Position numbers and translations under genes: made by a program. A stretch of DNA of 32,000 bases from an uncultured Clostridia bacterium (GTDB lineage Bacteria; Bacillota; Clostridia; Christensenellales; Aristaeellaceae). The stretch's first letter is position 1. Every line of letters starts with the position of its first letter. This document shows positions 7,608 through 32,000 of the stretch, one piece after another. The notes below the pieces were generated by a model. The model did no database searches. It saw nothing but the letters and a program-made list of their open reading frames with translations, and had not been told where the DNA came from. The DNA lies in NCBI GenBank assembly GCA_934647235.1, contig CAKUFG010000006.1, positions 66,950-98,949 of the forward strand, read 5' to 3'.

Positions 7608-7617
7608 AGCCGGGCAA

Positions 7618-7709
7618 GAAAGGGGACGAGGGGGCGAGAAAGGGGACGAGGGGGTACGTTACTTTCTTCACTGAAGAAAGTAACGTTCCCTTCGTTCTTT
7701 CCGTCCTCC
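7618..7709. repeat. Solo T element: two tandem purine-rich 20-mers, a 31-nt perfect palindrome and a pyrimidine-rich arm
   Basis: GAAAGGGGACGAGGGGG occurs twice (7618-7634, 7638-7654). The palindrome ACGTTACTTTCTTCACTGAAGAAAGTAACGT spans 7656-7686. TCCCTTCGTTCTTTCCGTCCTCC (7687-7709) ends directly at the GNAT stop codon. Confidence 0.85.
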
Positions 7710-8498: not shown

Positions 8499-8653
8499 TT
8501 TCATTTCCTCCATATTTTGTGATAGGTGAATAGGGAGCAAGGACGAGGGGGAGAGACGAGGGGACGTTACTTTCTTCAGTGAAGAAAGTAACAAAGAACC
8601 GGTTTTGCGTAAAAGCTGCTGGAATTAAACTGAAAGACAGGATTGCTGTAGAG

Positions 8654-8777
8654 CCCCGTGGCAGGGAAAAACTTGAATCGCTCGGTCTGGAGCAAGCTCC
8701 GCCCGCGCGCTTTTGCCTTTTTCCCCTATGGCCGTGCTGCGCACGTCCGCGCCGATTAAAATCGGCGTGCCACGGGG
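8654..8777. repeat. X module, alpha type (copy X1)
   Basis: CCCCGTGGCA (8654-8663) and TGCCACGGGG (8768-8777) close a multi-hairpin domain. Confidence 0.7.
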
Positions 8778-8877
8778 GCGTAGTTGGATGCGGAACCCTT
8801 GTGCGGTGATTTGCAATAGCTGGAGAGTGTACTCACCCAAAGGCTTCTCCTTGAGGAGAGGCTCCGCCGTAGGCGGT

Positions 8878-8955
8878 GGTGAGGTGTAGACCACGCAGTG
8901 GTCGTTATCATAACTATATAAAAGATAACGCCGCTGCGGCGGCTACACCTCATCC
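8878..8955. repeat. Y module, cloverleaf-like four-way junction (copy Y-A)
   Basis: GGTGAGGTGTAG and CTACACCTCATCC close three hairpins (GACCAC-GCA-GTGGTC, GTTATC..GATAAC, CCGC-TGCG-GCGG). Confidence 0.7.
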
Positions 8956-9059
8956 GAGCGGCTAAAGCCGCCCACCTTCCCCTCCAAGGGGAAGGCTTTT
9001 GGTGACCGTTCTATCTTACACTCGCTTTCCGCTGCGTCTGATTCCCACACCCAACCACG

Positions 9060-9185
9060 CCCCTCGTGGCACGCTGATCGCAGATCAGCGCGGGCGTGCG
9101 CAGCACGACCAAGGGGGAAAGCAGGAAGCGAACGGAGGAAAGCTTGCTTTCATCCGGGCGGTTCAGGCTTTCACCTGCCACGGGG
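9060..9185. repeat. X module, beta type (copy X3), inverted relative to X1
   Basis: CCCCTCGTGGCA and TGCCACGGGG close the domain. Nearly identical to 31378-31501. Confidence 0.7.
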
Positions 9186-9301
9186 CGGGTGGCCAGGGCC
9201 ACACCCAGTTTTATTCAATTGACTTTCACGTCGCACGCAGCTTTCTTTGGTACTTTCTTGGGCTCCAAGAAAGTACCGTTTTCCTCGTCCCCCTCGTCCC
9301 C

Positions 9302-10312
9302 TTATCTCCGGTTCTTGCGGTTGTACCTGGCAATTTGCTTCATTTTTTCATGCTTGGCGGCCAGCTGCGCCGCGCGGTCGGATTCCGCCGTCAGCGCCTG
9401 ATAGCGCTGCCATAGCCCCGCGTCCAGCGCGCCGCTTGCCAGCGCGGCGCGCACGGCGCAGCCCGGCTCGCAGGTGTGGGTGCAGTTGGAAAAGCGGCAG
9501 CGGCCGATCAGCTCCTCCACCGGCGCAAAGCTGTCGCGCAGCCCCTCACGGGCGAAAAGCAGCCCCATCTCGCGCATGCCGGGGGTGTCGATAATCATCG
9601 CGCCGCCGGGCAGCATCAGCAGCTGGCGCGCGGTGGTGGTGTGCCGCCCCTTGCCATCCTGGGCGCGGATGGCGGCGGTTGCCTGCGCATCCTGTCCCAG
9701 CAGGGCATTGATCAGGCTGGATTTGCCCACGCCCGAGCTGCCTAAGATCACCAGCGTGCGGCCGGGGGCCAGATAGGGCACAAGCCCCGCCATGCCCGCG
9801 CCCGTGGCGGCCGATACCGCCAGCGCCGGGACGTCGGGAAAGCGCTGCTGCACGGCGGCCAGATAGGGCTGGGCATCGGCGCACAGATCGGCCTTGGTCA
9901 GCAGGATCACCGGCGCGCCCCCGCTCTGCAGGGCCAGCGCCAGCGTGCGCTCCAGCCGCGGCAGGTTAAAATCCTGATTGAGCGATTGCGCAATCAGCAC
10001 GGTGTCAAAATTGGCCGCCACGGCCTGGGCCACGCGCCCCGGCGTGGGATCGCGGCGCGCAAAGCAGCTGCGGCGCGGCAGGGTGCGCACAATGGCGCTG
10101 TCGCCCGCCTGCTGCCAGGCAAGCAGCACAAAATCGCCCACGGTGGGAAACGTCTCGCCGCCGTAGTAGTACGCGCCGCCGCGCAGGGTGGCAAAGCCCG
10201 CGCCCGCATCGCACACAATCTGATAGCGGCCGCGATGCTCGCCTACAACGCGCGCGGCCAGGCAGGGGGAGTAGTCGTTGGGGTCGGTATACCCATAAGC
10301 TGAGATATGCAA
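9302..10312 (-). CDS. rsgA: Ribosome small-subunit-dependent GTPase A
   Basis: Circularly permuted GTPase motifs (TKAD, GSSGVGKSS, DTPG) and a C-terminal zinc knuckle (CRFSNCTHTCEPGC). TTG at 10312 lies 8 nt after GGAGG and is preferred. The listed start at 10351 is also TTG. Confidence 0.85.
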   Translation of the reverse strand: MHISAYGYTDPNDYSPCLAARVVGEHRGRYQIVCDAGAGFATLRGGAYYYGGETFPTVGDFVLLAWQQAGDSAIVRTLPRRSCFARRDPTPGRVAQAVAANFDTVLIAQSLNQDFNLPRLERTLALALQSGGAPVILLTKADLCADAQPYLAAVQQRFPDVPALAVSAATGAGMAGLVPYLAPGRTLVILGSSGVGKSSLINALLGQDAQATAAIRAQDGKGRHTTTARQLLMLPGGAMIIDTPGMREMGLLFAREGLRDSFAPVEELIGRCRFSNCTHTCEPGCAVRAALASGALDAGLWQRYQALTAESDRAAQLAAKHEKMKQIARYNRKNRR

Positions 10313-10527
10313 TTGTGATTCCTCCAAGTCAAAAACAGCAAAACGCCGCAAGAACCGCAGCGGTCCTCACGGCGTGAAGAAGCGTTCTGCGGGCGCAAAT
10401 GGATGCAGCAAACAAGGCGAACGCGCAGCGCAGTTCGCACTCTTCGGTTACATAGCGACTAAGCGCCTTACAGAACCGACATCCATTGCCCCTTTCGCGC
10501 TTCCCTTGGGGGAAGCATTATAGATAT

Positions 10528-12021: not shown

Positions 12022-12252
12022 GATACGAAAAGGGACGAGGGGAACGAGGAAACGGGGGAAACGTTACTTTCTTCAGTCATAGCGCCGCCGCAGGCGGCTG
12101 AGGGCGCGCAATTTTGCAAATTGCCGCCCGAAACCCGCGCTTGCCGCAAGGCAGTAGCGCGGGGCGTACAAGGAAAGTAACAAAGAACCTGTGTGTGACG
12201 TAAAAGTCAAGCTGATAAAACTGGGAGTGGCCCTGTCCACCTGCTGCCCCAC

Positions 12253-12372
12253 CCCCGTGGCAGGGAAAATTCGCGTGTCCGGATCGGCGCAAGCGCCATC
12301 CGTTCACTTGAATATTTCCCCTATGGCCTGGCTTCGCCAGCCCGCGCCGATTAAAATCGGCGTGCCACGGGG
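12253..12372. repeat. X module, alpha type (copy X2)
   Basis: CCCCGTGGCA (12253-12262) and TGCCACGGGG (12363-12372) close the domain. It shares the hairpin CGCCGATTAAAATCGGCG with X1. Confidence 0.7.
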
Positions 12373-12477
12373 CATGTTGGTTGATTGCGAAAACTCTGCG
12401 CGGCGATTAGCGGCTGTTGGAAAACGCACTCACCAAAAGGCTTCTCCTTGAGGAGAAGCTGTCAGCGAGAACTGACT

Positions 12478-12554
12478 GATGAGGTGTAGGCTGCGCAGCA
12501 GCCGTTAGCAAAGCTATATAGAGGATAACGCCGCAGCGGCGGCTACACCTCATC
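12478..12554. repeat. Y module (copy Y-B)
   Basis: GATGAGGTGTAG and CTACACCTCATC close three hairpins. Confidence 0.7.
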
Positions 12555-12777
12555 CGCTTCACTGCGTTCAGCACCTTCCCCTCGGAGGGGAAGGCTTCCG
12601 TAGGCTGTGCCAATGCAGCAGCATACCTTCGCCACTTGCAAAGCGCACGACTATAAAAGCCTTCTCCTAAACGGGAGAAGGTGTCGAGCGCACCGCGAGA
12701 CGGATGAGGGGGTTCCCTCAAACGTTCCCCATTCATCCCCTCCCCATCCTTAATTAGCAGTAAAAGGAGATAAAACA

Positions 12778-13893: not shown

Positions 13894-14151
13894 ATATGAA
13901 ATGCGCTATGCTTCAGGACAGAGAATCGGGTAAGATACATGTGGATTTTTATTGGTGAAATTTATAACTCTATAGCCGTTTTTAGTTTTAGGCAGGAAAA
14001 TGATTTGGAAAAACAGAACGAAGCAAAGGTTATGCTGCGGCATCAGCGATTGAAAGCCGCATATATGCAGACGCAGTGAAGCTGGACAAAGCAAATGCAA
14101 TGTGTTATTTTTTCTATGCTCAGGTACGCAAGTTAAGGGAGGCTGCATATC

Positions 14152-15903
14152 GTGGAAGGCCAGAAGAGAAGCATAAGGCGAGAGATTACGATTGCAATTT
14201 TAATCAGCGCGGCCATACAGCTTATTTTGGTTTGGATGCTGTTTTTGCTGCACTACGTAAATGCAGCAGCGATGGTTCAGCGTTATGTGATTGCGGACAC
14301 ACAAAAGAGCATGGCGCAAATGGATGCTTATCTAAAGCAGCAGATGAACACAGTGGTGGAACTGTCGTACAGCAATTTTATAGAAGCATATGCGAAAGCG
14401 ACGCATGCAAGACGATATGAAACATACCCTTATATTTCACAGGCGTTATACGAAATGCTCCTGGATCAGCAAACCGTTGGGTGTACGCTGCTCTTTGAGA
14501 ATGATACATCGCTGCGCATCGGCATAGGAGTGACTGATTATCTGCTGAAGGATGCAAGAAGCATTGGCGGATTTCAGCATTGGAGCGGGCAGAAGCGATC
14601 CTTACTTTTGTGGTCTGCACCGATCTATGGAAACGAACTGCTGCTGCAGAGACGGGGAGATTTCTGGATCGTTTTTGACATGGATGCATTGATGAAAAAG
14701 TACTTTGGCGCTGTTTCTGCCTGCTTCAGCGGGAAAGAATTGATTGGCTGCTCCTATGACCCGCAAAAGCTGGATCCGTTTGAAAATAAGGCTGCCGCGT
14801 CTTTTTTGCAAGGTGAAACCGGCACGGTTCATATTGATGGAGACGTATATGTTTATGCGCATTCTGTCAGCAGCGTTTTGGACTGTGATGTGCTTGCGCT
14901 GTATAAAGAAGCGGATATGATCAAGACGGATTCCGGGTTTTTGATGTCCTGTGCCCTATTCAGCTTGATTATCTGCGGGATTTCCAGCCTTGTGCTGTTT
15001 TCGCTGCAAACCAGGGTCAGCGCTCCAATCAATGGCCTGTGCAGTCAGGTAAGGGGGATCAGAAACGGCAGCCAGAAGAAAATTGGTGAAAGCGACGGCA
15101 GCTTTACTGAACTGGACTACCTGACGGATGAGATCAACAAGCTGCTGGATACACTGGCGGAACAAGCGATTGTCGAAAACCAGCTGCAGCAAAACCTGCT
15201 GGCATCGCGCACACATTATATGCAGGAACAGGCATTGCGCATGCAGACACAGATTAATCCGCACTTCCTGTACAACAACCTGGAATGCATCCGGGGAATG
15301 GCGCGGGATGGCGCATGGGATATAATTTGCCGGATGAGTACATCGATGGCGCGCATTTATGCCTATGCGGCCCGCCGCAGTGCATTGACAGCTGCGCTGC
15401 GGGAGGAGCTGCAGTGTGTAAAAGAATATGAAACCATTATCGAATTGCGTTATGACGGACAGTTCCGCTTTGAATGCGCTATCGCGCCGGAATGTCTGGA
15501 TATGCAGCTGCCTCGAATGACTCTGCAGCCTGTATGCGAGAACAGCGTTATCCATGGCAGAAGAATGGATGGCACCCAGCAGGTTATACGAATAGCGGCG
15601 TGCGTGCAGGGTGAGTATATGGAGCTGACGGTGTGCGATAATGGCAGGGGAATACCGCAAAAACGCATGGAAGAGCTGAACGAAGAAATATACCAATGGC
15701 GCGAGAAAAAAGGAGAAAAGCTGTATGAGGACCGCATAGGGCTGATTAATATCAGCCAGCGTTTGTTTATCCTTTATGGCAAAAACAGCAGCATTCACAT
15801 GGAACAAGACCAGGATAACGGGACGCTGACGCGCATCCGAATTCCCAAGCGCCTGCAGGAGACATCCACGCAGACACCCGATGAGAATACACAAAATCGC
15901 TGA
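14152..15903 (+). CDS. Sensor histidine kinase, YesM/LytS-type (His_kinase + HATPase_c)
   Basis: GTG start 9 nt after AAGGGAGG. Two TM segments flank an extracytoplasmic domain of about 230 aa. Motifs QINPHFLYNNLECI and CDNGRGIP are present. Confidence 0.85.
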   Translation: MEGQKRSIRREITIAILISAAIQLILVWMLFLLHYVNAAAMVQRYVIADTQKSMAQMDAYLKQQMNTVVELSYSNFIEAYAKATHARRYETYPYISQALYEMLLDQQTVGCTLLFENDTSLRIGIGVTDYLLKDARSIGGFQHWSGQKRSLLLWSAPIYGNELLLQRRGDFWIVFDMDALMKKYFGAVSACFSGKELIGCSYDPQKLDPFENKAAASFLQGETGTVHIDGDVYVYAHSVSSVLDCDVLALYKEADMIKTDSGFLMSCALFSLIICGISSLVLFSLQTRVSAPINGLCSQVRGIRNGSQKKIGESDGSFTELDYLTDEINKLLDTLAEQAIVENQLQQNLLASRTHYMQEQALRMQTQINPHFLYNNLECIRGMARDGAWDIICRMSTSMARIYAYAARRSALTAALREELQCVKEYETIIELRYDGQFRFECAIAPECLDMQLPRMTLQPVCENSVIHGRRMDGTQQVIRIAACVQGEYMELTVCDNGRGIPQKRMEELNEEIYQWREKKGEKLYEDRIGLINISQRLFILYGKNSSIHMEQDQDNGTLTRIRIPKRLQETSTQTPDENTQNR

Positions 15904-15963
15904 AGATGTCCATTTTTCTGCCAGATTAAGCATGATATAATGCGAAAAAAGGAGGCTGATCTC

Positions 15964-16899
15964 ATGGTAAGTGCAAAGGATGCGCGGCGCGCCGTTCCCA
16001 TATGGAAGCGCATGCTGCAGGCGAAGTACATTTATTTGATGCTGATTCCCGCCATTTTATACTACGCGGTATTTGTATATAAGCCTATGTACGGCGTGCT
16101 GATGGCATTTCAAAAGTACAACGTCCGTAAGGGAATCTGGGGCAGCAAATGGATTGGGTTTGCAAACTTTGAACGCTTATTCAACAGTCCGGCGGCGCTT
16201 CGGGCGGTGATGACTACACTGGAAATCAGCGTTACCCGTTTATGTATTGAGTTTTGCTGCCCGATTATACTGGCGATTTTCATCAATGAAATGCGAGGGA
16301 CAAAGCTCAAGCGCGTATACCAGACGATATACACTTTTCCCCATTTTTTGTCCTGGGTAATCGTGGGTTCCATTATCAAGATGATCTTCCGCGAAAGCGG
16401 TTTGGTGAATTCGCTGCTTGGTTTGATGGGGGTTGAACCGATCAATTTTCTGGCATCCAAAAGCTTTTTCCGGCCGCTGCTGTATGGCAGCTCGATATGG
16501 AAGGGCGTGGGCTGGGCGGCCATTATTTATATGGCGGGCATTGCCGGCATCAGCCCTGAGCTGTATGAGGCGGCTGAGGTAGACGGAGCTGCCCGGCTGC
16601 AGCGGATCATTCATATTACGCTGGCCGGCATTATGCCCGTTATCATTATTCAGCTGATCCTGTCGGTCGGCGGCCTGCTGGGCGGCTCCTTTGATCAGAT
16701 TTATAACCTGCAAAATGCGGTGGTTAAATCTGTGGCGACAACCATTGATATTTATGTATATGATATCACCTTCAGCGCGGTGCCTGATTATGGGTTCTCT
16801 ACAGCGGTGGGACTTTTCCGATCTGTAATTAATATCATCTTGATGTTTATTGCCAACGGCGTTATCAAAAGGATTAACGGCCAGGGCTTGTTAGGCTAA
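15964..16899 (+). CDS. Sugar ABC transporter permease (LplB/YesP-like)
   Basis: ATG at 15964 lies 8 nt after GGAGG. The N-terminus resembles LplB (WKRMLQAKYIYLMLIPAILYYAVFVYKPMYG). Confidence 0.85.
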   Translation: MVSAKDARRAVPIWKRMLQAKYIYLMLIPAILYYAVFVYKPMYGVLMAFQKYNVRKGIWGSKWIGFANFERLFNSPAALRAVMTTLEISVTRLCIEFCCPIILAIFINEMRGTKLKRVYQTIYTFPHFLSWVIVGSIIKMIFRESGLVNSLLGLMGVEPINFLASKSFFRPLLYGSSIWKGVGWAAIIYMAGIAGISPELYEAAEVDGAARLQRIIHITLAGIMPVIIIQLILSVGGLLGGSFDQIYNLQNAVVKSVATTIDIYVYDITFSAVPDYGFSTAVGLFRSVINIILMFIANGVIKRINGQGLLG

Positions 16900-16918
16900 A
16901 GGAAAGGGAGAAAGCACG

Positions 16919-17881
16919 ATGAACGCATCTGCCAAATATCAGAAAAATGTGCAGGCTGCGGCGCTGCGCACTGGCTTCAAAAAGAAAAAAAGAAAAAAGC
17001 TGGACCTGCTGGATATCATTATTTATACAGTGCTTACGCTGCTGGCGGTGTCTATTATCATTCCCATTTATCATGTAATTCTGGTTTCACTGGCGAGCAA
17101 CAGAACCTACATGACCAATCCGGGCATGATGTTTCTTAAGCCTTCAGATATTACGCTGATTAACTATAAGTACATTTTTGAGTCGCCTATTTTAGCAACC
17201 GGCTATAAATCGACGCTTTTCATCACCGTATTAGGCACGGTTTACGGCATGAGCATTACGCTGCTGGCAGCATATGCGCTTTCCAGGCCGGCTTATCCAG
17301 GCAAAAAGCTGTTCTTTGTGCTGTTTATTCTGATTCCAATGTACTTTGGCGGCGGGATGATTCCGGCATACCTGAACCTGCGCGATCTGGGGCTGCTGAA
17401 CAAGCAGATAACCATTGTTATTATGATGGGCGTATCTGGATTCAACATGCTGATCATCAAGAGTAATATCGAGCAGATGCCCGAGGGCTTGCTGGAGGCG
17501 GCCAGACTGGACGGCGCTTCGGAGCTGGTTATATTTGTGCGCATCGTTTTGCCGCTGCAGCTGCCTATCATTGCTACGTTTTCCTTGTTTACGGCGGTAG
17601 GATACTGGAACGAGTGGTTCTGGCCCATGATGGTGCTGGACAAATCCGAGCAGTGGCCGCTGCCCCTGGTGCTGCGGGCCGTGGTGAACAGCGGCATCGG
17701 CAATTTCCAGGATGCTGCCAGCGAAAGCATGCAGTCCTATAAGAATTTGCAGGATTCGGTTTCCGCTACCGGCACTACCATGGCCACGCTGTTTATGACA
17801 ATGCTTCCCATCATGGTAACATATCCTTTCCTGCAAAAGTACTTTGTAAAGGGCACCCTTGTGGGCGCAATTAAAATGTAA
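16919..17881 (+). CDS. Sugar ABC transporter permease (LplC/YesQ-like)
   Basis: 320-aa polytopic protein. EAA-like loop LEAARLDGASELVIFVRIVLP. Confidence 0.85.
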   Translation: MNASAKYQKNVQAAALRTGFKKKKRKKLDLLDIIIYTVLTLLAVSIIIPIYHVILVSLASNRTYMTNPGMMFLKPSDITLINYKYIFESPILATGYKSTLFITVLGTVYGMSITLLAAYALSRPAYPGKKLFFVLFILIPMYFGGGMIPAYLNLRDLGLLNKQITIVIMMGVSGFNMLIIKSNIEQMPEGLLEAARLDGASELVIFVRIVLPLQLPIIATFSLFTAVGYWNEWFWPMMVLDKSEQWPLPLVLRAVVNSGIGNFQDAASESMQSYKNLQDSVSATGTTMATLFMTMLPIMVTYPFLQKYFVKGTLVGAIKM

Positions 17882-17961
17882 TCAATGCCTGGGTATACAC
17901 GGGCTTGATCGTAATCGTAATGTTTCTCTCATGACCGACCCAAAAGAAAGGAGCACTCCCG

Positions 17962-19518
17962 ATGAAAAAATGGTTGACCCTGCTTCTGGCGCTTGCCCTG
18001 CTGCTGCCTCACTGTGCTGCACTGGCGGACGAGCCCGCTTACGGCCCTTATGATAAGCATGTGAGCTTTACTGCCAGCCAGTATAGCCAGATCACTGAAG
18101 GCGGCGATTATACCCACGATGAAGTGTACTATAAGCTGCAGGACATGTTCAATTTTGACTGGGAGCTGTATGCCGTGGATGGCAGCGCCTGGCATGAAAA
18201 GAACACCATGTGGATTACCGGCGGCACGATGCCTGATATCCTGTTCTTTGGCTGGAATGCCGTCGAATACCAGCAGTATGCCGAGCAGGAGCTGATTAAG
18301 CCCTTGCCGGACGGGTGGGAAAGCAAGTATCCTAACCTGGCTGCGCAGGTGGAGGCTACGGGCATTGCCGAAGCCATCAAGGTAAACGGAAAGACCTATG
18401 GTATTCCGCATACGATTATTCATCTGGTCGGCCCCAAGAACTTTGTTTACGCTATGCATACCCTGTATTACTATCGCCTTGACTGGGCGAAGGAGCTGGG
18501 CTATGATTGGGGCGTAAGCTGCACGCTGGATGAATTTACGAGCTATCTGCGTGACTGTAAGGAAAAATTCGGCAGCGTCGGCATGGTGCAGAGCACCGGC
18601 ACGCTGCTTAAACCGCTTCTGTATCAGTTCAGCAAAGGCTACAATGCGATCTACAAGAATGAGGAAGGCAAGTACGTGCTTGGCTTTGCGGACAAGGGCA
18701 CGGTTGAAGGCACTCAGTTCCTGCGCGATATGTACAACGAGGGCCTGATCTCCAAGGAGTATTACCTGAGCAACTATAATGAATGGTATGCCGGTAAGGC
18801 GGCTGTTATCGAATATTGGGGCGGTCCGCTGCATCCCCAGGATATGGCGAACAACTGGCTTGCTGCCGCCAGCGAACCCAACGCCAAAACCCTGGATGAT
18901 GTGAAGAATATTATTGGCACTGTTACTGTGACCGATAATAACGGCGTGTATCATGCGGCAGGTACGCAGGGCAATTTCTGCTTCGGCTCCCTGTTCAGTC
19001 CCGATCTGGATGACGAAACCTTCGATCGTATTCTGGCCATGTATGATTATTTTGCTACGCTGGAGGGCTTTGAGCTGACGCAGCTGGGTATTCGCGGCGT
19101 GGATTGGGACAAGGATGAGGAAGGCCATTATACGCTGCTGTGCCCCGAGATTCTGGATGGTACCTATGCTGTGATCCGTGAAAAGTATCCCTCGATGTAT
19201 TATCTGTACCTGCGCAACGTGCTGTCCGATTCTGCTGCCTATATCAATCCGCTGATCGATTCTTATTGGCGGCAGATGAGCGACGATATGTACGAATTCC
19301 GCTGCAGCCAGGATATCGTGCCCTTTGACGCGGATCTGGCTTTCTATTCCAGCGATGCGGCGAATCATTATTCCATCAACTGGAACACTGCGGTGGATCG
19401 GCTTGTGCTGGACAGCAGCCTGGATATCGAAACTGAAGTGGCGCGCCTGATTGAGGAAAACCGCTTTATGTGGGAGCCGCTTATCAACGAACTGAATGAG
19501 AAATTCGGCGCCAAATAA
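17962..19518 (+). CDS. Large extracellular sugar-binding protein (LplA/LipO-like SBP)
   Basis: 518 aa. Signal peptide MKKWLTLLLALALLLPHCAALADE, with a Cys but no canonical lipobox. Size and context fit Lpl-type SBPs. Confidence 0.8.
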   Translation: MKKWLTLLLALALLLPHCAALADEPAYGPYDKHVSFTASQYSQITEGGDYTHDEVYYKLQDMFNFDWELYAVDGSAWHEKNTMWITGGTMPDILFFGWNAVEYQQYAEQELIKPLPDGWESKYPNLAAQVEATGIAEAIKVNGKTYGIPHTIIHLVGPKNFVYAMHTLYYYRLDWAKELGYDWGVSCTLDEFTSYLRDCKEKFGSVGMVQSTGTLLKPLLYQFSKGYNAIYKNEEGKYVLGFADKGTVEGTQFLRDMYNEGLISKEYYLSNYNEWYAGKAAVIEYWGGPLHPQDMANNWLAAASEPNAKTLDDVKNIIGTVTVTDNNGVYHAAGTQGNFCFGSLFSPDLDDETFDRILAMYDYFATLEGFELTQLGIRGVDWDKDEEGHYTLLCPEILDGTYAVIREKYPSMYYLYLRNVLSDSAAYINPLIDSYWRQMSDDMYEFRCSQDIVPFDADLAFYSSDAANHYSINWNTAVDRLVLDSSLDIETEVARLIEENRFMWEPLINELNEKFGAK

Positions 19519-19553
19519 AACAATCTGACCTGCCAAAGGGCGGAGGTGTGAAG

Positions 19554-20270
19554 ATGTACCGAGCTATGATTGTGGACGATGACAGATGGGCCCTGAAGGA
19601 CATCTGCTCCACGTTTCATTTTCAACAGCAGGGCTTTGAGCTGGTTTCTTCCTGCACAAGCGGAGAAGAAGCCGAGGCTGCATTTGAACACCTTCGCCCT
19701 GATGTTTTGATTACGGATATCCAGCTGGGCGGTATGGACGGATTGGAGCTGATGCACCGCTGCCTGGCTATGAAGAACGATCTGATTACAATTATCGTAT
19801 CCGGACACAGCGATTTCAGCTACGCAAAGGACGCTCTGAACGGGGGCGCGACGCACTACCTGCTTAAACCGATTGACGGAAGCGAAGCTGTTCTTGCGCT
19901 GCAAAAATGCTACGCTGCGCTTACCTCGCGCAAACCGAAGGATAACGAAGACTGCATAGCGAGCATCTGCAGCTATGTTGGCGCGCATCTGTCGCCCTCT
20001 CTGACGCTGGCGGAAATTGCAAACCAGTATTATCTGAACGTTACCTATCTTTCAGAACTGTTTCAAAGAAGAATGGGCGTTTCATTTTCTGCGTATAAGA
20101 AAAAATGCATGCTGGAGAAGGCGTGCGATGTGCTTAAGCAGAGGGATTCCCGCGTAATGGAGGCGTCCGAAAGCTGCGGCTTCCAGGATATTCATTATTT
20201 CTCTCGCTGGTTCAAGGAACAAACAAAAATGAGCCCCAAGGAATACAAAGAGCTATTTTGCCGCCGCTGA
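19554..20270 (+). CDS. Response regulator with AraC-type HTH output (YesN-like, compact)
   Basis: ATG at 19554 lies 7 nt after GGAGG. REC domain (IVDDD, VLITDIQLGGMDG, LLKP) plus a single AraC HTH (FQDIHYFSRWFKEQTKMSPKEYK). Confidence 0.85.
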   Translation: MYRAMIVDDDRWALKDICSTFHFQQQGFELVSSCTSGEEAEAAFEHLRPDVLITDIQLGGMDGLELMHRCLAMKNDLITIIVSGHSDFSYAKDALNGGATHYLLKPIDGSEAVLALQKCYAALTSRKPKDNEDCIASICSYVGAHLSPSLTLAEIANQYYLNVTYLSELFQRRMGVSFSAYKKKCMLEKACDVLKQRDSRVMEASESCGFQDIHYFSRWFKEQTKMSPKEYKELFCRR

Positions 20271-20289
20271 TAAATGGAGGATAATAAAA

Positions 20290-21570
20290 ATGACGGAATG
20301 GCATTATGCATTATACGGTGACGGCGTTCACGACGATACGGACGCCATTCAGGAGCGCTTGGACAGCCGAATAGCCTGCGTGTATCTGCCCGCGCCGAAA
20401 AAACATTATTGTATTAGCCGGACGCTGAAAATTCACAGCAATCAGACGCTGCGTTTGGATTCAACCACGGAAATCCGCCTGATGCCTAAATGCGATTTCT
20501 GCATGATTACCAATGCAGACCCGCGCGGTGAAGATCAGCATATCACCGTCGAAGGCGGAATATGGAACATGGACAATATGAACCAGACGCCCTTTATGGC
20601 GCATTTGAAGGTGCTGCCGGGCGATCGGTATCCGCGCAACTATGCGCCGGGCTTTCCGCCGCTGAGCGATAAATGGAATAATGCTGCAAATCAGGATGGC
20701 CAATACGATCTCCCGGAAGAATGCGGGTATATGAGCGCCGAGGGCAGCATCTGCACAATGGTGTTTTCTCATATCAAATATTTTACGCTGCGCAATCTGA
20801 CCATTAAGAACCCGCGATATTTTGCAACCTATATGTTCTATCTTCAGTATTTTACCATTGAGAATATCACCTTTGATTTCAATTACGGCAATCCATATGC
20901 AATTCATATGGACGGCATTCATCTGGACGGCGGCTGCAGGTTTGGGCATATCCGCAACCTGCAGGGACGCTGCTTTGACGATTTGCTGGCGCTCAACGCA
21001 GACGATTCGATCTATGGTCCCATCGAGGATATCAGCGTTGACGGACTATACAGCGATAATTGCCACAGCGCTGTGCGCATGCTTTCCACAAAGTCCTGGA
21101 TTCGCAACATCAATATACAAAATGTATACGGTACTTATTGGCAGTATGCAGTCGGCATCACGCGCTTTCATTATCGTCCTGACGAGGTGAACAGCCTGGG
21201 GCTGTATGATAACATAATGCTGAAAAATATCTGTGTTTCCAAGGCGCCCAGATACAGCCTGTACTGCAAGGATGACAGCTATGTTTACCCGCTGATTTTT
21301 ATCGAGCGTTTGCTGCATATCGGCAGGCTGCATATTGAAAATCTACACCGGTTGGAAAAGGTTACGCCGATCGATACCATTTATGTGGGCGAAAAAACGG
21401 ATATAAGCGAAATGGTGATTACTGATTCTTCGCAGGAGAATCGCCTTGCGGAGCCGTTCCCATTCCTGCGCAGCGAGGGCATGATTGAAAAACTGATTAT
21501 TTCCAATACAGACAGCGGAAAGGACGATCTTTTGGCGGGAAACATGCCAAAGCTGTTTTTTTCAAGATGA
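20290..21570 (+). CDS. Right-handed beta-helix protein, GH28-related/pectate-lyase-superfamily-like; no signal peptide
   Basis: The N-terminal motif YGDGVHDDTDAIQERLDS is typical of the Pectate_lyase_3-type fold. There is no hydrophobic N-terminus. Confidence 0.6.
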   Translation: MTEWHYALYGDGVHDDTDAIQERLDSRIACVYLPAPKKHYCISRTLKIHSNQTLRLDSTTEIRLMPKCDFCMITNADPRGEDQHITVEGGIWNMDNMNQTPFMAHLKVLPGDRYPRNYAPGFPPLSDKWNNAANQDGQYDLPEECGYMSAEGSICTMVFSHIKYFTLRNLTIKNPRYFATYMFYLQYFTIENITFDFNYGNPYAIHMDGIHLDGGCRFGHIRNLQGRCFDDLLALNADDSIYGPIEDISVDGLYSDNCHSAVRMLSTKSWIRNINIQNVYGTYWQYAVGITRFHYRPDEVNSLGLYDNIMLKNICVSKAPRYSLYCKDDSYVYPLIFIERLLHIGRLHIENLHRLEKVTPIDTIYVGEKTDISEMVITDSSQENRLAEPFPFLRSEGMIEKLIISNTDSGKDDLLAGNMPKLFFSR

Positions 21571-22841
21571 TCCAGGAGAAGCTTTCTATGAACAGGCTGC
21601 GTGGATTGGGCAGAATTCTCTCGGCTCAAATTGGGCTGAACATGCTGAGCAAATCCTATAAACGCTATTTGCTTACCTATATGCTGTTCACCATTGGCGG
21701 AACGATATCGAGCAGCTACTTCAGCTTTTTTCTTCTGCGTGCAACGGGCAGCGAAAGCTCGCTGCGCATATACAACCTGCTGATTGCCTGCGTGCAGCCG
21801 TTTATCATGCTGCCTGCGCTTGCAGTGCTGAAACGATGGTCGGTATCAGTGTGCATGCGCATTGGTCTGCTTATTCACACTGCGGCGTATGCGCTGCTGG
21901 CAGCCAGCGGAAATGCGGATATGGCTACTGTATATGCTGTATCGGCAATGCTCTCGTCGGGCAATGCATTTATCTTTACGGCTTATACGCCGCAGCAGCT
22001 GGCTTATGCAACGGATGAAAACCGGGATGCTTGCTACGGGGTCGTCAGCGTATTGAGTACAATTGTCAGCCTTGTGCTGCCCCTGACAACGGGGCTGTTT
22101 ATCAGCCGCTTTGACGATTTGACGGGCTATTCCGTTCTGTTTGCAGCATCATCGCTGATTACCTTAGGCAGCTTCGCCGCTTCTTTTCGGCTGACGCCTG
22201 TGGTATATGGAGATCGGCGGCAGAAAAACGTACTGCGCAGAACGATGAAGGCTTTCCTGGGCAGCAAGAAAATTTGGGCCAGCATGATTGCAACCATGCT
22301 GGACGCTATGCGCGCGCACGGATTCGGCTTTTTTTCTGCATTGCTGGTATTTGATCTGATTGGCAGAGAAAGCGTAATGGCGGTGTTCAGCGTTGCGACA
22401 ACCATTGTGAACATGATGATGAGCATTGCTTACACGCGGATGGCAACGCCGCGTAACCGCGGCTGGCTGATGCTGCTGGGCGCGGTGGGCTATACCATCG
22501 CCGTAGCGATCGTATGCCTGGACCATACGTTTACAGGGTATATCATGTATGCGCTGCTGAGCACTATTGTAAGCGTATTCATTTCCAATCCCGTTTTAAC
22601 CAGCTATCTCAGCGCAGTGCAAAACGATTCTTTCCTGTGTCAGCATGGCGCGGAGGTGCACTTGCTGCGTGAAGTCTTTGTGGCCTCAGGGCGCGTAATT
22701 GGCTTGCTGCCAGCTTTTTTGATGCCTGACCCGACAGAATACGCGGCAGTTATGATGCTTTTGTTCGCCGCCGTGCAGATTCCTGCTGCGCTGCTGACAA
22801 AGTACCTGCAGCGCAGGGTTAATTTGGAGCAATCGACATAA
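21567..22841 (+). CDS. MFS-type transporter
   Basis: About 12 hydrophobic spans. The ATG overlaps the preceding stop (ATGA). Internal starts are possible. Confidence 0.7.
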   Translation: MIQEKLSMNRLRGLGRILSAQIGLNMLSKSYKRYLLTYMLFTIGGTISSSYFSFFLLRATGSESSLRIYNLLIACVQPFIMLPALAVLKRWSVSVCMRIGLLIHTAAYALLAASGNADMATVYAVSAMLSSGNAFIFTAYTPQQLAYATDENRDACYGVVSVLSTIVSLVLPLTTGLFISRFDDLTGYSVLFAASSLITLGSFAASFRLTPVVYGDRRQKNVLRRTMKAFLGSKKIWASMIATMLDAMRAHGFGFFSALLVFDLIGRESVMAVFSVATTIVNMMMSIAYTRMATPRNRGWLMLLGAVGYTIAVAIVCLDHTFTGYIMYALLSTIVSVFISNPVLTSYLSAVQNDSFLCQHGAEVHLLREVFVASGRVIGLLPAFLMPDPTEYAAVMMLLFAAVQIPAALLTKYLQRRVNLEQST

Positions 22842-22905
22842 ATAGCCGGGACAAGGGCGGGCTTGTCTGCTGACAAGGGCGGGAATGATAATAAGAAAGC
22901 CAAAT

Positions 22906-30776: not shown

Positions 30777-30878
30777 GGCGCGTAATCCGCCGCTGCCTGT
30801 GGCAGATGAAGGCGGATGCAGCGCCAATGAGGCAACGAGTTTTGCAAGCGTCGGCGCCGCAAAACGACTATGCCGAAT

Positions 30879-30955
30879 TGTGAGGGCCGTAGCCGCCGCA
30901 GCGGCGTTATCTTATATAGTTATGATAACGGCTGCTTCGCAGCCTACACCTCATC
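30879..30955. repeat. Y module, degenerate copy (Y-C1, inverted)
   Basis: The three internal hairpins are intact. The closing helix is interrupted (GTGAGGGCCGTAG versus CTACACCTCATC). Confidence 0.55.
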
Positions 30956-31199
30956 AGTCAGCTCTCGCTGACAGCTTCTCCTCAAGGAGAAGCCTTTTGG
31001 GTGATCGCACTCTCCAACGCATGTAAACTGCCGCGCTCCCCCCTCATCCGTCTCGCTGTGCGTTCGACACCTTCTCCCGAGGGAGAAGGCTTTTATAGTC
31101 GTGCTTTTGCTAAACTAAGCTTCGAGAACGCACTACCGCATTGGCACAGCCGCCAAAAGCCTTCCCCTTTGAGGGGAAGGTGGCGAATGTAATGAGCCG

Positions 31200-31274
31200 G
31201 ATGAGGTGTAGCCGCCGCAGCGGCGTTATCTTATATAGTTATGATAACGGCTGCTTCGCAGCCTACACCTCATC
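31200..31274. repeat. Y module (Y-C2, inverted)
   Basis: GATGAGGTGTAG and CTACACCTCATC close three hairpins. Confidence 0.7.
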
Positions 31275-31377
31275 AGTCAGCATTCGCTGACAGCTTCTCC
31301 TCAAGGAGAAGCCTTTTGGTGGCTGTTCTTTCCAGCTATCGATAGCCGTTATGCTTGATTTTCGCACCTAGCCATCG

Positions 31378-31501
31378 CCCCGTGGCACGCTGATCGCAGA
31401 TCAGCGTGGGCGTGCGCAGCACGACCAAGAGGAAAAGCAGGAAGCGAACGGAGGAAAGCTTGCTTTCATCCGGACGGTTCAGGCTTTCACCTGCTACGGG
31501 G
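31378..31501. repeat. X module, beta type (copy X4)
   Basis: CCCCGTGGCA (31378-31387) and TGCTACGGGG (31492-31501) close the domain. By manual alignment it differs from 9060-9185 by about five substitutions and one 2-nt indel. Confidence 0.7.
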
Positions 31502-31653
31502 GTAGGGCGGCAGGTGGCCAGGGCCACTCCCTGTTTTCGTCCAATAGACTTTTACGTCACACACAGGTTCTTTGTTACTTTCTTCACTGAAGAAAGTAAC
31601 GTCCTCCCCGTTTCCCCGCCCTCCTCGTCCCTCCATGCCAGAAAGGAACCGTC

Positions 31654-32000
31654 ATGATGACCATTCAGCCCCTGCGCGATGTGCGCGCGTGTCTGCCCTT
31701 TGTGCTGGCGATCAACGCGGATCCCTGCCTGGGCGATCCCATGCTGCGCACCGCCGAGCAGCTGCAGGTTAACCTGCTCAGCGTGCAGGATCAGCCCGGC
31801 CATCAGGCGTTCGGCGCGTATGAGGGCGAGCGGCTCGCCGGGCTGTTTGTGTTTTTGATTTTGCCGGGCGAGCGCTATATCGAAATGCTGGCCGGGCTTA
31901 CCCGCGAGCCGGCGGCCTGGGAGGCCATGCTGGCGCACCTGCGCGCGCAGTATTCCGGCTGTCAGGCAGACTTTGTGTTCAATCCCATGAACGCCCCGCT
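31654..32000 (+). CDS. Hypothetical protein, 3' end outside window (absent from the ORF track because no stop is reached)
   Basis: ATGATG at 31654, then an open frame to the window edge (MMTIQPLRDVRACLPFVLAINADP...). G+C-rich third positions match the neighbouring genes. Weak RBS. Confidence 0.55.
   Translation, partial: MMTIQPLRDVRACLPFVLAINADPCLGDPMLRTAEQLQVNLLSVQDQPGHQAFGAYEGERLAGLFVFLILPGERYIEMLAGLTREPAAWEAMLAHLRAQYSGCQADFVFNPMNAP

Follow-up and report, generated by a model that had tools for sequence, protein, structure and literature searches.

Several families of MITEs with structured interiors have been described: Correia/CREE in Neisseria, ERIC/IRU in enterobacteria, RUP and BOX in pneumococcus and bcr1 in Bacillus cereus (PMC3184786). 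We describe here a repeat family of uncultured Clostridia built around a module of about 124 nt, called X, of which four copies lie in the 32,000-nt stretch of DNA that was analysed (the window). Like those MITEs, the elements carrying X are small and non-coding, occur in tens to hundreds of dispersed intergenic copies, have terminal inverted repeats, vary in presence from strain to strain, favour the 3' ends of genes and fold strongly on both strands; like BOX, with its A-B-C organisation, they are modular. Unlike those MITEs, they have as their core a self-contained four-way junction (a closing helix P1 and three arms) and not a single long hairpin, the topology of this core is kept across lineages amid sequence turnover, its arm alleles reassort combinatorially, and no cognate insertion sequence was found for them in about 830 kb of sister-lineage loci.

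The REP, BIME and REPIN sequences with their RAYT offer a second point of comparison (PMC3337134, PMC3733652, PMC8266576). GC-rich hairpins, mosaic arrays, enrichment at gene 3' ends and convergent sites, compensated variation of stems and head-to-head dimers are shared with the X elements, and module Z, which adjoins X, carries a GTAG tag. However, REPs are single hairpins of 20-40 nt, whereas X is branched; the sister lineage is without a GT(A/G)G head, terminal inverted repeats of 29 nt bound the unit as a whole, and the loci examined yielded no RAYT. If a REP is defined as a 20-40-nt hairpin with an unpaired 5' GT(A/G)G tag, X does not have this feature and module Z does. Firmicutes and Clostridia are not mentioned in the REP survey (PMC3733652).

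Two further likenesses concern structure. In the predicted fold, P4 recalls a bidirectional intrinsic terminator, since it is a long GC-containing hairpin with A5 on its 5' side and T5 on its 3' side, at mostly convergent sites; unlike such terminators, it is 20-30 bp long with internal loops, is enclosed by P1, and was missed by a consensus terminator scan. Parvovirus ITRs and Streptomyces telomere palindromes are branched single-stranded-DNA hairpins at the ends of linear replicons, where they prime replication. By analogy, and as a structural resemblance only, X is comparable to them in length (about 125 nt), in its outer palindrome around short hairpins capped by GCA, GAA or AAA, and in its flip and flop arm forms, whereas it is internal, chromosomal and dispersed. 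No description of the X-element family was found in Rfam or in literature searches. The evidence given below indicates that X is probably the structured core of non-coding, non-autonomous, multi-copy intergenic repeats of a MITE-like or mosaic kind, and not a dedicated RNA gene, riboswitch or ribozyme.

All four X copies were found at the positions given by a first-pass annotation of the window. They and the larger elements that contain them are as follows.

8654..8777, minus strand: X copy facing the copy at 9060, both being inner parts of one foldback of ~760 nt; covariance model score 122 bits.
9060..9185, plus strand: X copy with a 2-nt bulge in P1, P2 CGCTGATC-GCA, P3 GCGTGC-GCA and P4 tip G(CTTG)C; dG -70.3, z -6.4, covariance model score 121.7 bits.
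12253..12372, minus strand: X copy in the pgk-tpi spacer, antisense to pgk and tpi; covariance model score 124.1 bits.
31378..31501, plus strand: X copy between pcp and a downstream plus-strand ORF, with one G-T pair in P1; covariance model score 111.4 bits.
8539..9304, no strand: composite foldback between the GNAT gene and rsgA; in order, purine tract, hairpin A (8566-8592), spacer, X', Y', Z (8877-8956), Y, X, small hairpin (9188-9202), spacer, hairpin A' (9248-9278), pyrimidine tract.
12031..12760, no strand: composite element filling the pgk-tpi spacer; in order, purine tract, hairpin A with a structured loop insert of ~90 nt (12080-12170), spacer, small hairpin, X, Y, Z (12477-12556), more hairpins, pyrimidine tract.
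30860..31640 (start about 30860), no strand: composite element upstream of the plus-strand ORF starting near 31655; Z copies, three terminator-like hairpins, X, small hairpin (31511-31527), spacer, hairpin A (31574-31600), pyrimidine tract.
7613..7708, no strand: 'solo' remnant made of a purine tract, hairpin A (7658-7684) and a pyrimidine tract, the inner part being absent.

Put in one orientation, the four X copies align with 80% mean column identity. Each of them folds, on both strands, as P1 closing a short P2, a short P3 and a long P4, with free energies of -58 to -73 kcal/mol (z -4.5 to -8.0; 0 of 200 shuffles equally stable), and 0.00 chance occurrences of the strict P1...P1 pattern are expected in the window. 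The helices proposed by the first-pass annotation were recovered down to their irregularities: P1 as CCCCGTGGCA/TGCCACGGGG, with the single G-T pair and the 2-nt bulge in the copies listed above, P2 as CGCTGATC-GCA or CGCCGATT-TTA, P3 as GTGC-GCA or TGGC-GAA, and P4 with a CTTG loop on differing stems above a base of purine/T-rich pairing. Its distinction of 'alpha' and 'beta' sequence types was in error, these being the two orientations of a single module: the copy at 8654 has the 'beta' P3, and arm alleles reassort among 49 copies. We keep 'beta' for the sense in which the copies at 9060 and 31378 read on the plus strand.

X is never free-standing, being always enclosed in a larger, inverted-arm repeat. 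All 34 same-species X copies examined are followed by the same series of small hairpin, spacer, hairpin A and pyrimidine tract. In the beta sense, the small hairpin 3' of X is GGTGGCCAGGGCCAC or GGCGGCAGTGCCGCC and the conserved spacer ends in ...TTGACTTTTACGTCACACACAGGTTCTTTG; hairpin A is the palindrome GTTACTTTCTTCnnnGAAGAAAGTAAC, of which compensated variants occur, and the pyrimidine tract consists of 30-50 nt of CCCCTCGTC-like units and abuts the adjoining gene. Upstream of X lie more repeated modules, Y and Z, except in two copies, which have a mirror-image arm there instead. The pyrimidine-tract ends in the window adjoin the starts of two genes (GNAT and the ORF at 31655) and the ends of two others (rsgA and pgk), so that two of the X copies are sense and two antisense to their neighbours.

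The modules surrounding X have features of their own. Z (8877-8956, 12477-12556 and 31198-31275, with a partial copy at 30889-30956) is a closed domain in which a GATGAGGTGTAG/CTACACCTCATC stem encloses two GC hairpins and one AT-rich hairpin; GTAG precedes each GC hairpin, giving a head-to-head dimer of GTAG-tagged REP-like units, and GAGGTGTAG occurs 7 times versus 0.05 expected. The ~90-nt insert in the loop of hairpin A at 12080-12170 is multi-hairpin, reads GCGCCGCCGCAGGCGGC...GCGCGGGGCG and recurs at other loci. The purine tract GGGGACGAGGGGGCGAGAAAGGGGACGAGGGGG (7620-7655) contains four G-runs separated by loops of 4, 7 and 4 nt, a canonical G-quadruplex pattern; other purine tracts contain three runs. 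Terminator-like hairpins, which belong to module Y, read GCTTCTCC-TCAA-GGAGAAGC followed by CTTTTGG (30974-30993, 31070-31089 and 31293-31312; on the minus strand 12440-12459 and 12660-12681), always in the direction of the beta sense of X. The spacers (8593-8653, 12182-12222, 9204-9247 and 31528-31573) share a conserved near-palindrome, TGAC-GTAAAA-GTCA (GACTTTTACGTCAC on the opposite strand), retained in the sister lineage as CGCCGTAAAAGC, which on its sequence could be a candidate protein-binding site.

A genome collection was scanned with the pattern CGTGGCACGC N{85,115} CCTGCYACGGGG. True copies occurred in two records only, the remaining matches being unrelated sequences: the MAG 'Clostridiales bacterium W1P21.023' (SFIM01), which has many X copies and whose genes share 95-97% identity with those of the window, and an Oscillospiraceae MAG contig with an X copy almost identical to one of SFIM01. 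A covariance model, as the first-pass annotation had suggested, was then built from 24 X copies and retrieved many more from the same species, namely 35 copies in 15 SFIM loci plus the window and 24 further ones in six orthologous metagenome loci. The 49 distinct same-species copies bear out the claim of a closed domain of several helices in which compensated changes preserve the pairing. Standard pairs fill 96.7% of the cells, versus 35-45% with slid partners; 17 of the 38 pairs show changes on both sides; and the covariation score is 0.267 versus 0.106 in shuffles, a value reached by 0 of 500 shuffles. P1 itself has the compensated variants CCGCAGGGCA/TGCCCTGCGG and CCCCGCGGCA/TGCCGCGGGG.

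The arm alleles in these 49 copies are discrete (five for P2, two for P3, six for P4), and 25 of the 60 possible combinations were seen. Whole-arm exchange between copies accounts for much of the compensation seen in the four window copies. The exact TIM protein of the window was present in 174 blocks of the metagenome collection, and at the pgk-tpi locus P2 and P4 alleles differ among strains in which this protein is identical; 'alpha' and 'beta' are therefore orientations and not lineages.

A weak match of the model (39 bits) at L032:14783-14909 led to a second family. This copy has the X architecture with helix sequences that are almost wholly different: P1 is CTTCCGGGCA/TGCCCGGAAG, P2 is GGCCGGC-GAA-GCCGGCC, P3 is CTGTGCGC-AAA-GCGCACAG, and P4 is long with A-run/T-run pairing at its base; its fold is predicted at -78.5 kcal/mol (z -9.9). 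P1 differs from that of the window species at four pairs, all four of them compensated. A metagenome scan with the sister P1 gave at least 120 loci and at least 111 distinct true copies. Most of these came from a single genome (JGI 3300027276, with contigs of up to 852 kb) and the others from further samples, and the closed-domain claim holds for these at least 111 copies as well. P1 with three arms is present in 159 of 160 distinct copies (111 of 111 listed sister-lineage copies, 48 of 49 in the window species). Tens to more than 100 X copies per genome occur across the two lineages. The X-element family is confined to one small clade of uncultured Clostridia, for which the nearest named relatives are Acutalibacteraceae, at 71% PGK identity.

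In the sister lineage the limits of the unit can be drawn. It is ~380 nt long, with X central between two different arms; the terminal inverted repeats of the unit, 29 nt each, read CAAACAGAAATTGGACGGGGAGGG... on one side and ...CCCCGTCCAATTTCTGTTTG on the opposite one, and the element ends are TGCTGTTTATC.../CAAACAGAAATTGGACG. The common arms and the terminal repeat CAAACAGAAATTGGACGGGGAGGG... are present in 94 sister-lineage copies, and a spacing of 350-400 nt was found for 24 of 31 terminal-repeat pairs. In the window species the ends are the inverted purine-tract/hairpin-A arms, defined only as far as the purine and pyrimidine tracts. One arm is homologous between lineages; sister-lineage elements have it next to P2 of X, and window-species elements next to P4. 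The sister X may be flipped relative to its arms; this arrangement is explained in part by the symmetric arms of the minimal window-species elements at L015:6680 and L009:892.

Beyond the terminal repeats, sister elements (L035-L154) have a further ~30 nt at each end, in two related forms, TACTATTTCACTTCTAAGCAACTGCATG and TGCTGTTTATCATCTAAAGGATTGAATCGG, that begin TGCT(G/A)TTT; in clearly typed copies each form occurs once. The terminal repeats, arms and X together are found in either orientation between these outer ends, which could result from inversion between the terminal repeats or from insertion both ways into a repeated target.

Orthologous loci differ in their content of elements. Among strains with an identical TIM protein, the pgk-tpi spacer varies from 525 to 756 nt and the GNAT-rsgA spacer from 103 to 804 nt. 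In sister species (85-87% PGK identity) the pgk-tpi spacers are all element-free, with lengths of 26 nt (L033), 104 nt (L034) and 212 nt (L032). The ~90-nt insert of hairpin A at this locus is present in the window, L027 and L030, and absent from L026, L028, L029 and L031. Between YitT and GNAT the window has a spacer of 160 nt with the solo hairpin A (7613-7708), versus ~930 nt in strain L027, where an element of that size (L027:4240-5110) has two X copies between two A hairpins. The window solo looks like the product of a deletion between two palindromic A hairpins, much as a solo LTR, to judge by this comparison. X copies themselves have been shortened between strains by deletions at 5-6-nt direct repeats.

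Other strain differences affect genes. The 3' end of rsgA has been lost through deletions that start in the repeat at L031:6609-6800 and L028:6816-7766 (orthologues of window 9302-10351), leaving products of 323 and 316 aa instead of 336 aa; the repeats thus promote deletions into adjoining genes. Separately, a block of ~9 kb (window about 14150-22850) has 46-53% GC versus 56-68% elsewhere; its products are a histidine kinase, ABC sugar permeases, an AraC-type response regulator, a pectate-lyase-like protein and an MFS transporter. The window and L030 carry the block, and L027 lacks it, YhbY there directly adjoining the 2-hydroxyacid dehydrogenase gene; its position is occupied by other genes in L026, L028, L029 and L031. 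It appears to be a strain-specific accessory island.

The location of X relative to genes was analysed using gene calls from a crude GC3-based method, which recovers most known window genes. Convergent spacers represented 41 of 78 spacers with X (53%) and 39 of 376 without X (10%; odds ratio 9.6, p = 1.5e-15), whereas divergent spacers were depleted (6 of 78 versus 67 of 376). About half of the convergent junctions hold elements, in DNA that had been chosen for carrying X. In tandem contexts X was sense in 13 cases and antisense in 19, hence without sense bias. Given the modelled P4, a long hairpin between A5 and T5, the fold may stop read-through from both sides, and X possibly acts as a two-way transcription block at gene 3' ends.

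The first-pass annotation implied a dedicated structured RNA, and a functional RNA read from the beta strand (sRNA, cis-regulatory domain or ribozyme), with the repeat as its mere vehicle, would agree with the strong covariation in all four helices and with an architecture common to both lineages despite near-complete sequence turnover. Two observations on loops and stability point the same way: the G(CUUG)C tetraloop hardly varies among window-species copies (39 of 48), and the beta strand folds slightly better, by 4.1 kcal/mol in the window species and 1.0 in the sister lineage with RNA parameters. So does the constraint on paired positions, for nucleotide diversity within two subfamilies is 0.04 in paired columns versus 0.19-0.22 in unpaired ones (p < 1e-6), about five times less, which means that pairing is actively kept. 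Most other properties of X speak against an RNA. X is embedded in a larger inverted-arm repeat and occurs in both orientations relative to genes, with no bias; no sigma-70-like promoter was found inside the elements; and copies are freely shortened between strains. The junction bases differ both within and between lineages, and most loops vary too, which leaves X without a constant core that might serve catalysis or bind a ligand; P2 and P3 are perfect short hairpins.

Neither do wobble pairs designate a transcribed strand. An initial impression that they favour the beta strand (35 G·T and 6 A·C) was rejected when the fold of the opposite strand, used as control, gave equal numbers: G·T and A·C counts on the two strands were 35 + 6 versus 34 + 4 in the window species and 40 + 11 versus 46 + 11 in the listed sister-lineage copies, and are therefore no evidence for transcription of one of them. 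Hairpin tips and loops are moreover found inverted. Among the sister copies listed, P4 tips occur in both orientations (CAAG 43 and CTTG 15; CGAG 15 and CTCG 11), P2 loops are GAA in 69 and TTC in 13, and P3 has many palindromic 4-nt loops; such inversions are a hallmark of hairpin-mediated DNA events. The Rfam check, also suggested by the first-pass annotation, assigned X to no family: there were 0 matches over the window at gathering score, and permissive scans of the elements (E <= 5) gave chance-level matches only. Ribozymes (hammerhead, hairpin, twister-sister) were discarded since X is without conserved unpaired core nucleotides at its junction or internal loops, and group II intron fragments and tRNA-like elements for missing defining features or the lack of an Rfam match. 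A dedicated RNA, ribozyme or riboswitch is thus not supported, and we regard a functional RNA carried by the repeat as decidedly unlikely.

The asymmetry between strands might instead reflect DNA. With DNA parameters the beta strand is more stable by 5.5 kcal/mol (window species) and 1.4 kcal/mol (sister lineage), and is the better one in 47 of 49 and 89 of 111 listed copies. Its loops are mostly GCA, GAA or AAA closed by C-G, and GCGNAGC-type GNA triloops form extraordinarily stable DNA mini-hairpins (PMC13037366, PMC3201870). From these predicted folds, a strand-specific single-stranded-DNA role of X is possible. X could in particular be the substrate of an HUH/tyrosine enzyme of the REP/REPIN-RAYT or IS200/IS605 type, which would recognise the cloverleaf on one strand during replication or transposition. 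Besides the C-G-closed GNA triloops (GCGAAGC, GCGCAGC) and the beta-strand advantage, this proposal draws on GTGG directly before P2 in the window-species P1 and on module Z next to X, whose head-to-head dimer of GTAG-tagged hairpins is a REP signature (PMC3733652). It conflicts with the sister P1, CCGGGCA, which has no GT(A/G)G head, and with the triloops of the listed sister copies, which are not conserved (TTC and palindromic 4-nt loops, as above). HUH systems lack long terminal inverted repeats, which the elements have, and 3-bp duplications, which they may have; the 13 versus 19 split in tandem contexts, taken as a proxy for replication direction, shows no orientation bias, and no RAYT or TnpA gene was seen in the sister-lineage loci examined, a partial sample. 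An HUH substrate is on balance unlikely.

Related candidates were rejected on similar grounds. For a derivative of IS200/IS605, these were the presence of terminal inverted repeats and the same 13:19 ratio. As to integron attC sites, P1 is without the RYYYAAC/GTTRRRY core sites, and X occurs in both orientations and at gene starts as well as ends. A phage origin was rejected as well: the 120 matches of a loose P1 pattern on viral contigs were due to chance, all scoring <=23.5 versus >60 for true copies; specific X patterns on viral contigs gave 0 matches in one case and, in another, 1 match of 143 nt that was left unchecked. A blastn search of plasmids with 8500-9300 gave no match.

Could the fold exist without a function, as palindromes made and kept perfect by mutation alone, through template switching and gene conversion? 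Template switching is known to generate compensated changes in hairpins (bioRxiv 10.1101/2021.04.15.439925, PMC8794818), and both the inverted loops and tips and the whole-arm exchanges, seen even within a single orthologous locus, are what such processes would leave. Local hairpin correction, however, fits single hairpins and not the long-range closure of P1 or the order of arms. Of 160 copies from two lineages with little helix similarity, 159 retain the topology together with the order and lengths of the arms, and the four pairs by which P1 differs between lineages are all compensated. We consider mutation alone a very unlikely explanation.

The MITE-like or mosaic repeat remains the reading that we consider probable. 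X elements are small, non-coding, multi-copy and intergenic, with terminal inverted repeats and with filled and empty sites; a cognate autonomous insertion sequence with the same ends was not found in the ~830 kb of sister loci, which are part of the genome. Several features lead us to infer that the units are, or formerly were, moved in trans by a transposase recognising the terminal repeats: these repeats themselves, the number of copies, the occurrence of both filled and empty sites, and partial evidence for duplications of 3 bp. The outer ends read TG...CA, and among seven sister elements with both outer ends resolved, three are flanked by identical 3 nt (TCA, TTA, TGG) and four are not. 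The four-way junction would form when the DNA is single-stranded, or transcribed from either side. Pairing would then be kept by DNA-level correction, that is, template switching in hairpins and gene conversion among copies, plus selection for a fold that is compact, paired throughout and harmless at the 3' ends of genes; the two probably act jointly.

Some observations sit less easily with a MITE-like repeat. No multi-copy or transposase-like ORF was detected by ORF clustering in the ~830 kb of sister-lineage loci (part of the genome), and no long terminal-repeat pair encloses a candidate gene there; the ORF clusters and long terminal-repeat pairs yielded nothing beyond ABC ATPases, response regulators and housekeeping genes. 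Mobility alone does not explain the five-fold constraint on paired sites, because a cut-and-paste transposase needs no internal cloverleaf. The stability edge of the beta strand, with its GNA/AAA loops, hints at a strand-specific single-stranded role that a MITE-like repeat does not require. A slim possibility is therefore worth stating, that X is a structure-defined module whose folded four-way junction is recognised on one strand, as ssDNA or RNA, with sequence mattering little; the recogniser would be a recombinase, an HUH enzyme or an RNA-binding factor. Such recognition would explain why topology, arm order and purine triloops persist while all helices are rewritten, why the side of the homologous arm on which X stands differs between the lineages, and why paired sites are about five-fold more constrained than unpaired ones. 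If true, X would represent a mobile or regulatory unit of a new, structure-directed kind in Clostridia.

As the core of a MITE-like or mosaic repeat, which we favour, X nonetheless belongs to an undescribed and very abundant repeat family of uncultured Clostridia, organisms that are common in metagenomes, and the unusual trait of this family is a branched core whose topology outlives its sequence. It provides a case of strong covariation in a selfish or structural DNA repeat, which a covariation test alone would call a structured RNA. The elements probably fragment metagenome assemblies of their hosts. Since they remodel operon spacers, as between pgk and tpi, and fill convergent junctions, they may affect both transcription termination and genome stability in these bacteria.
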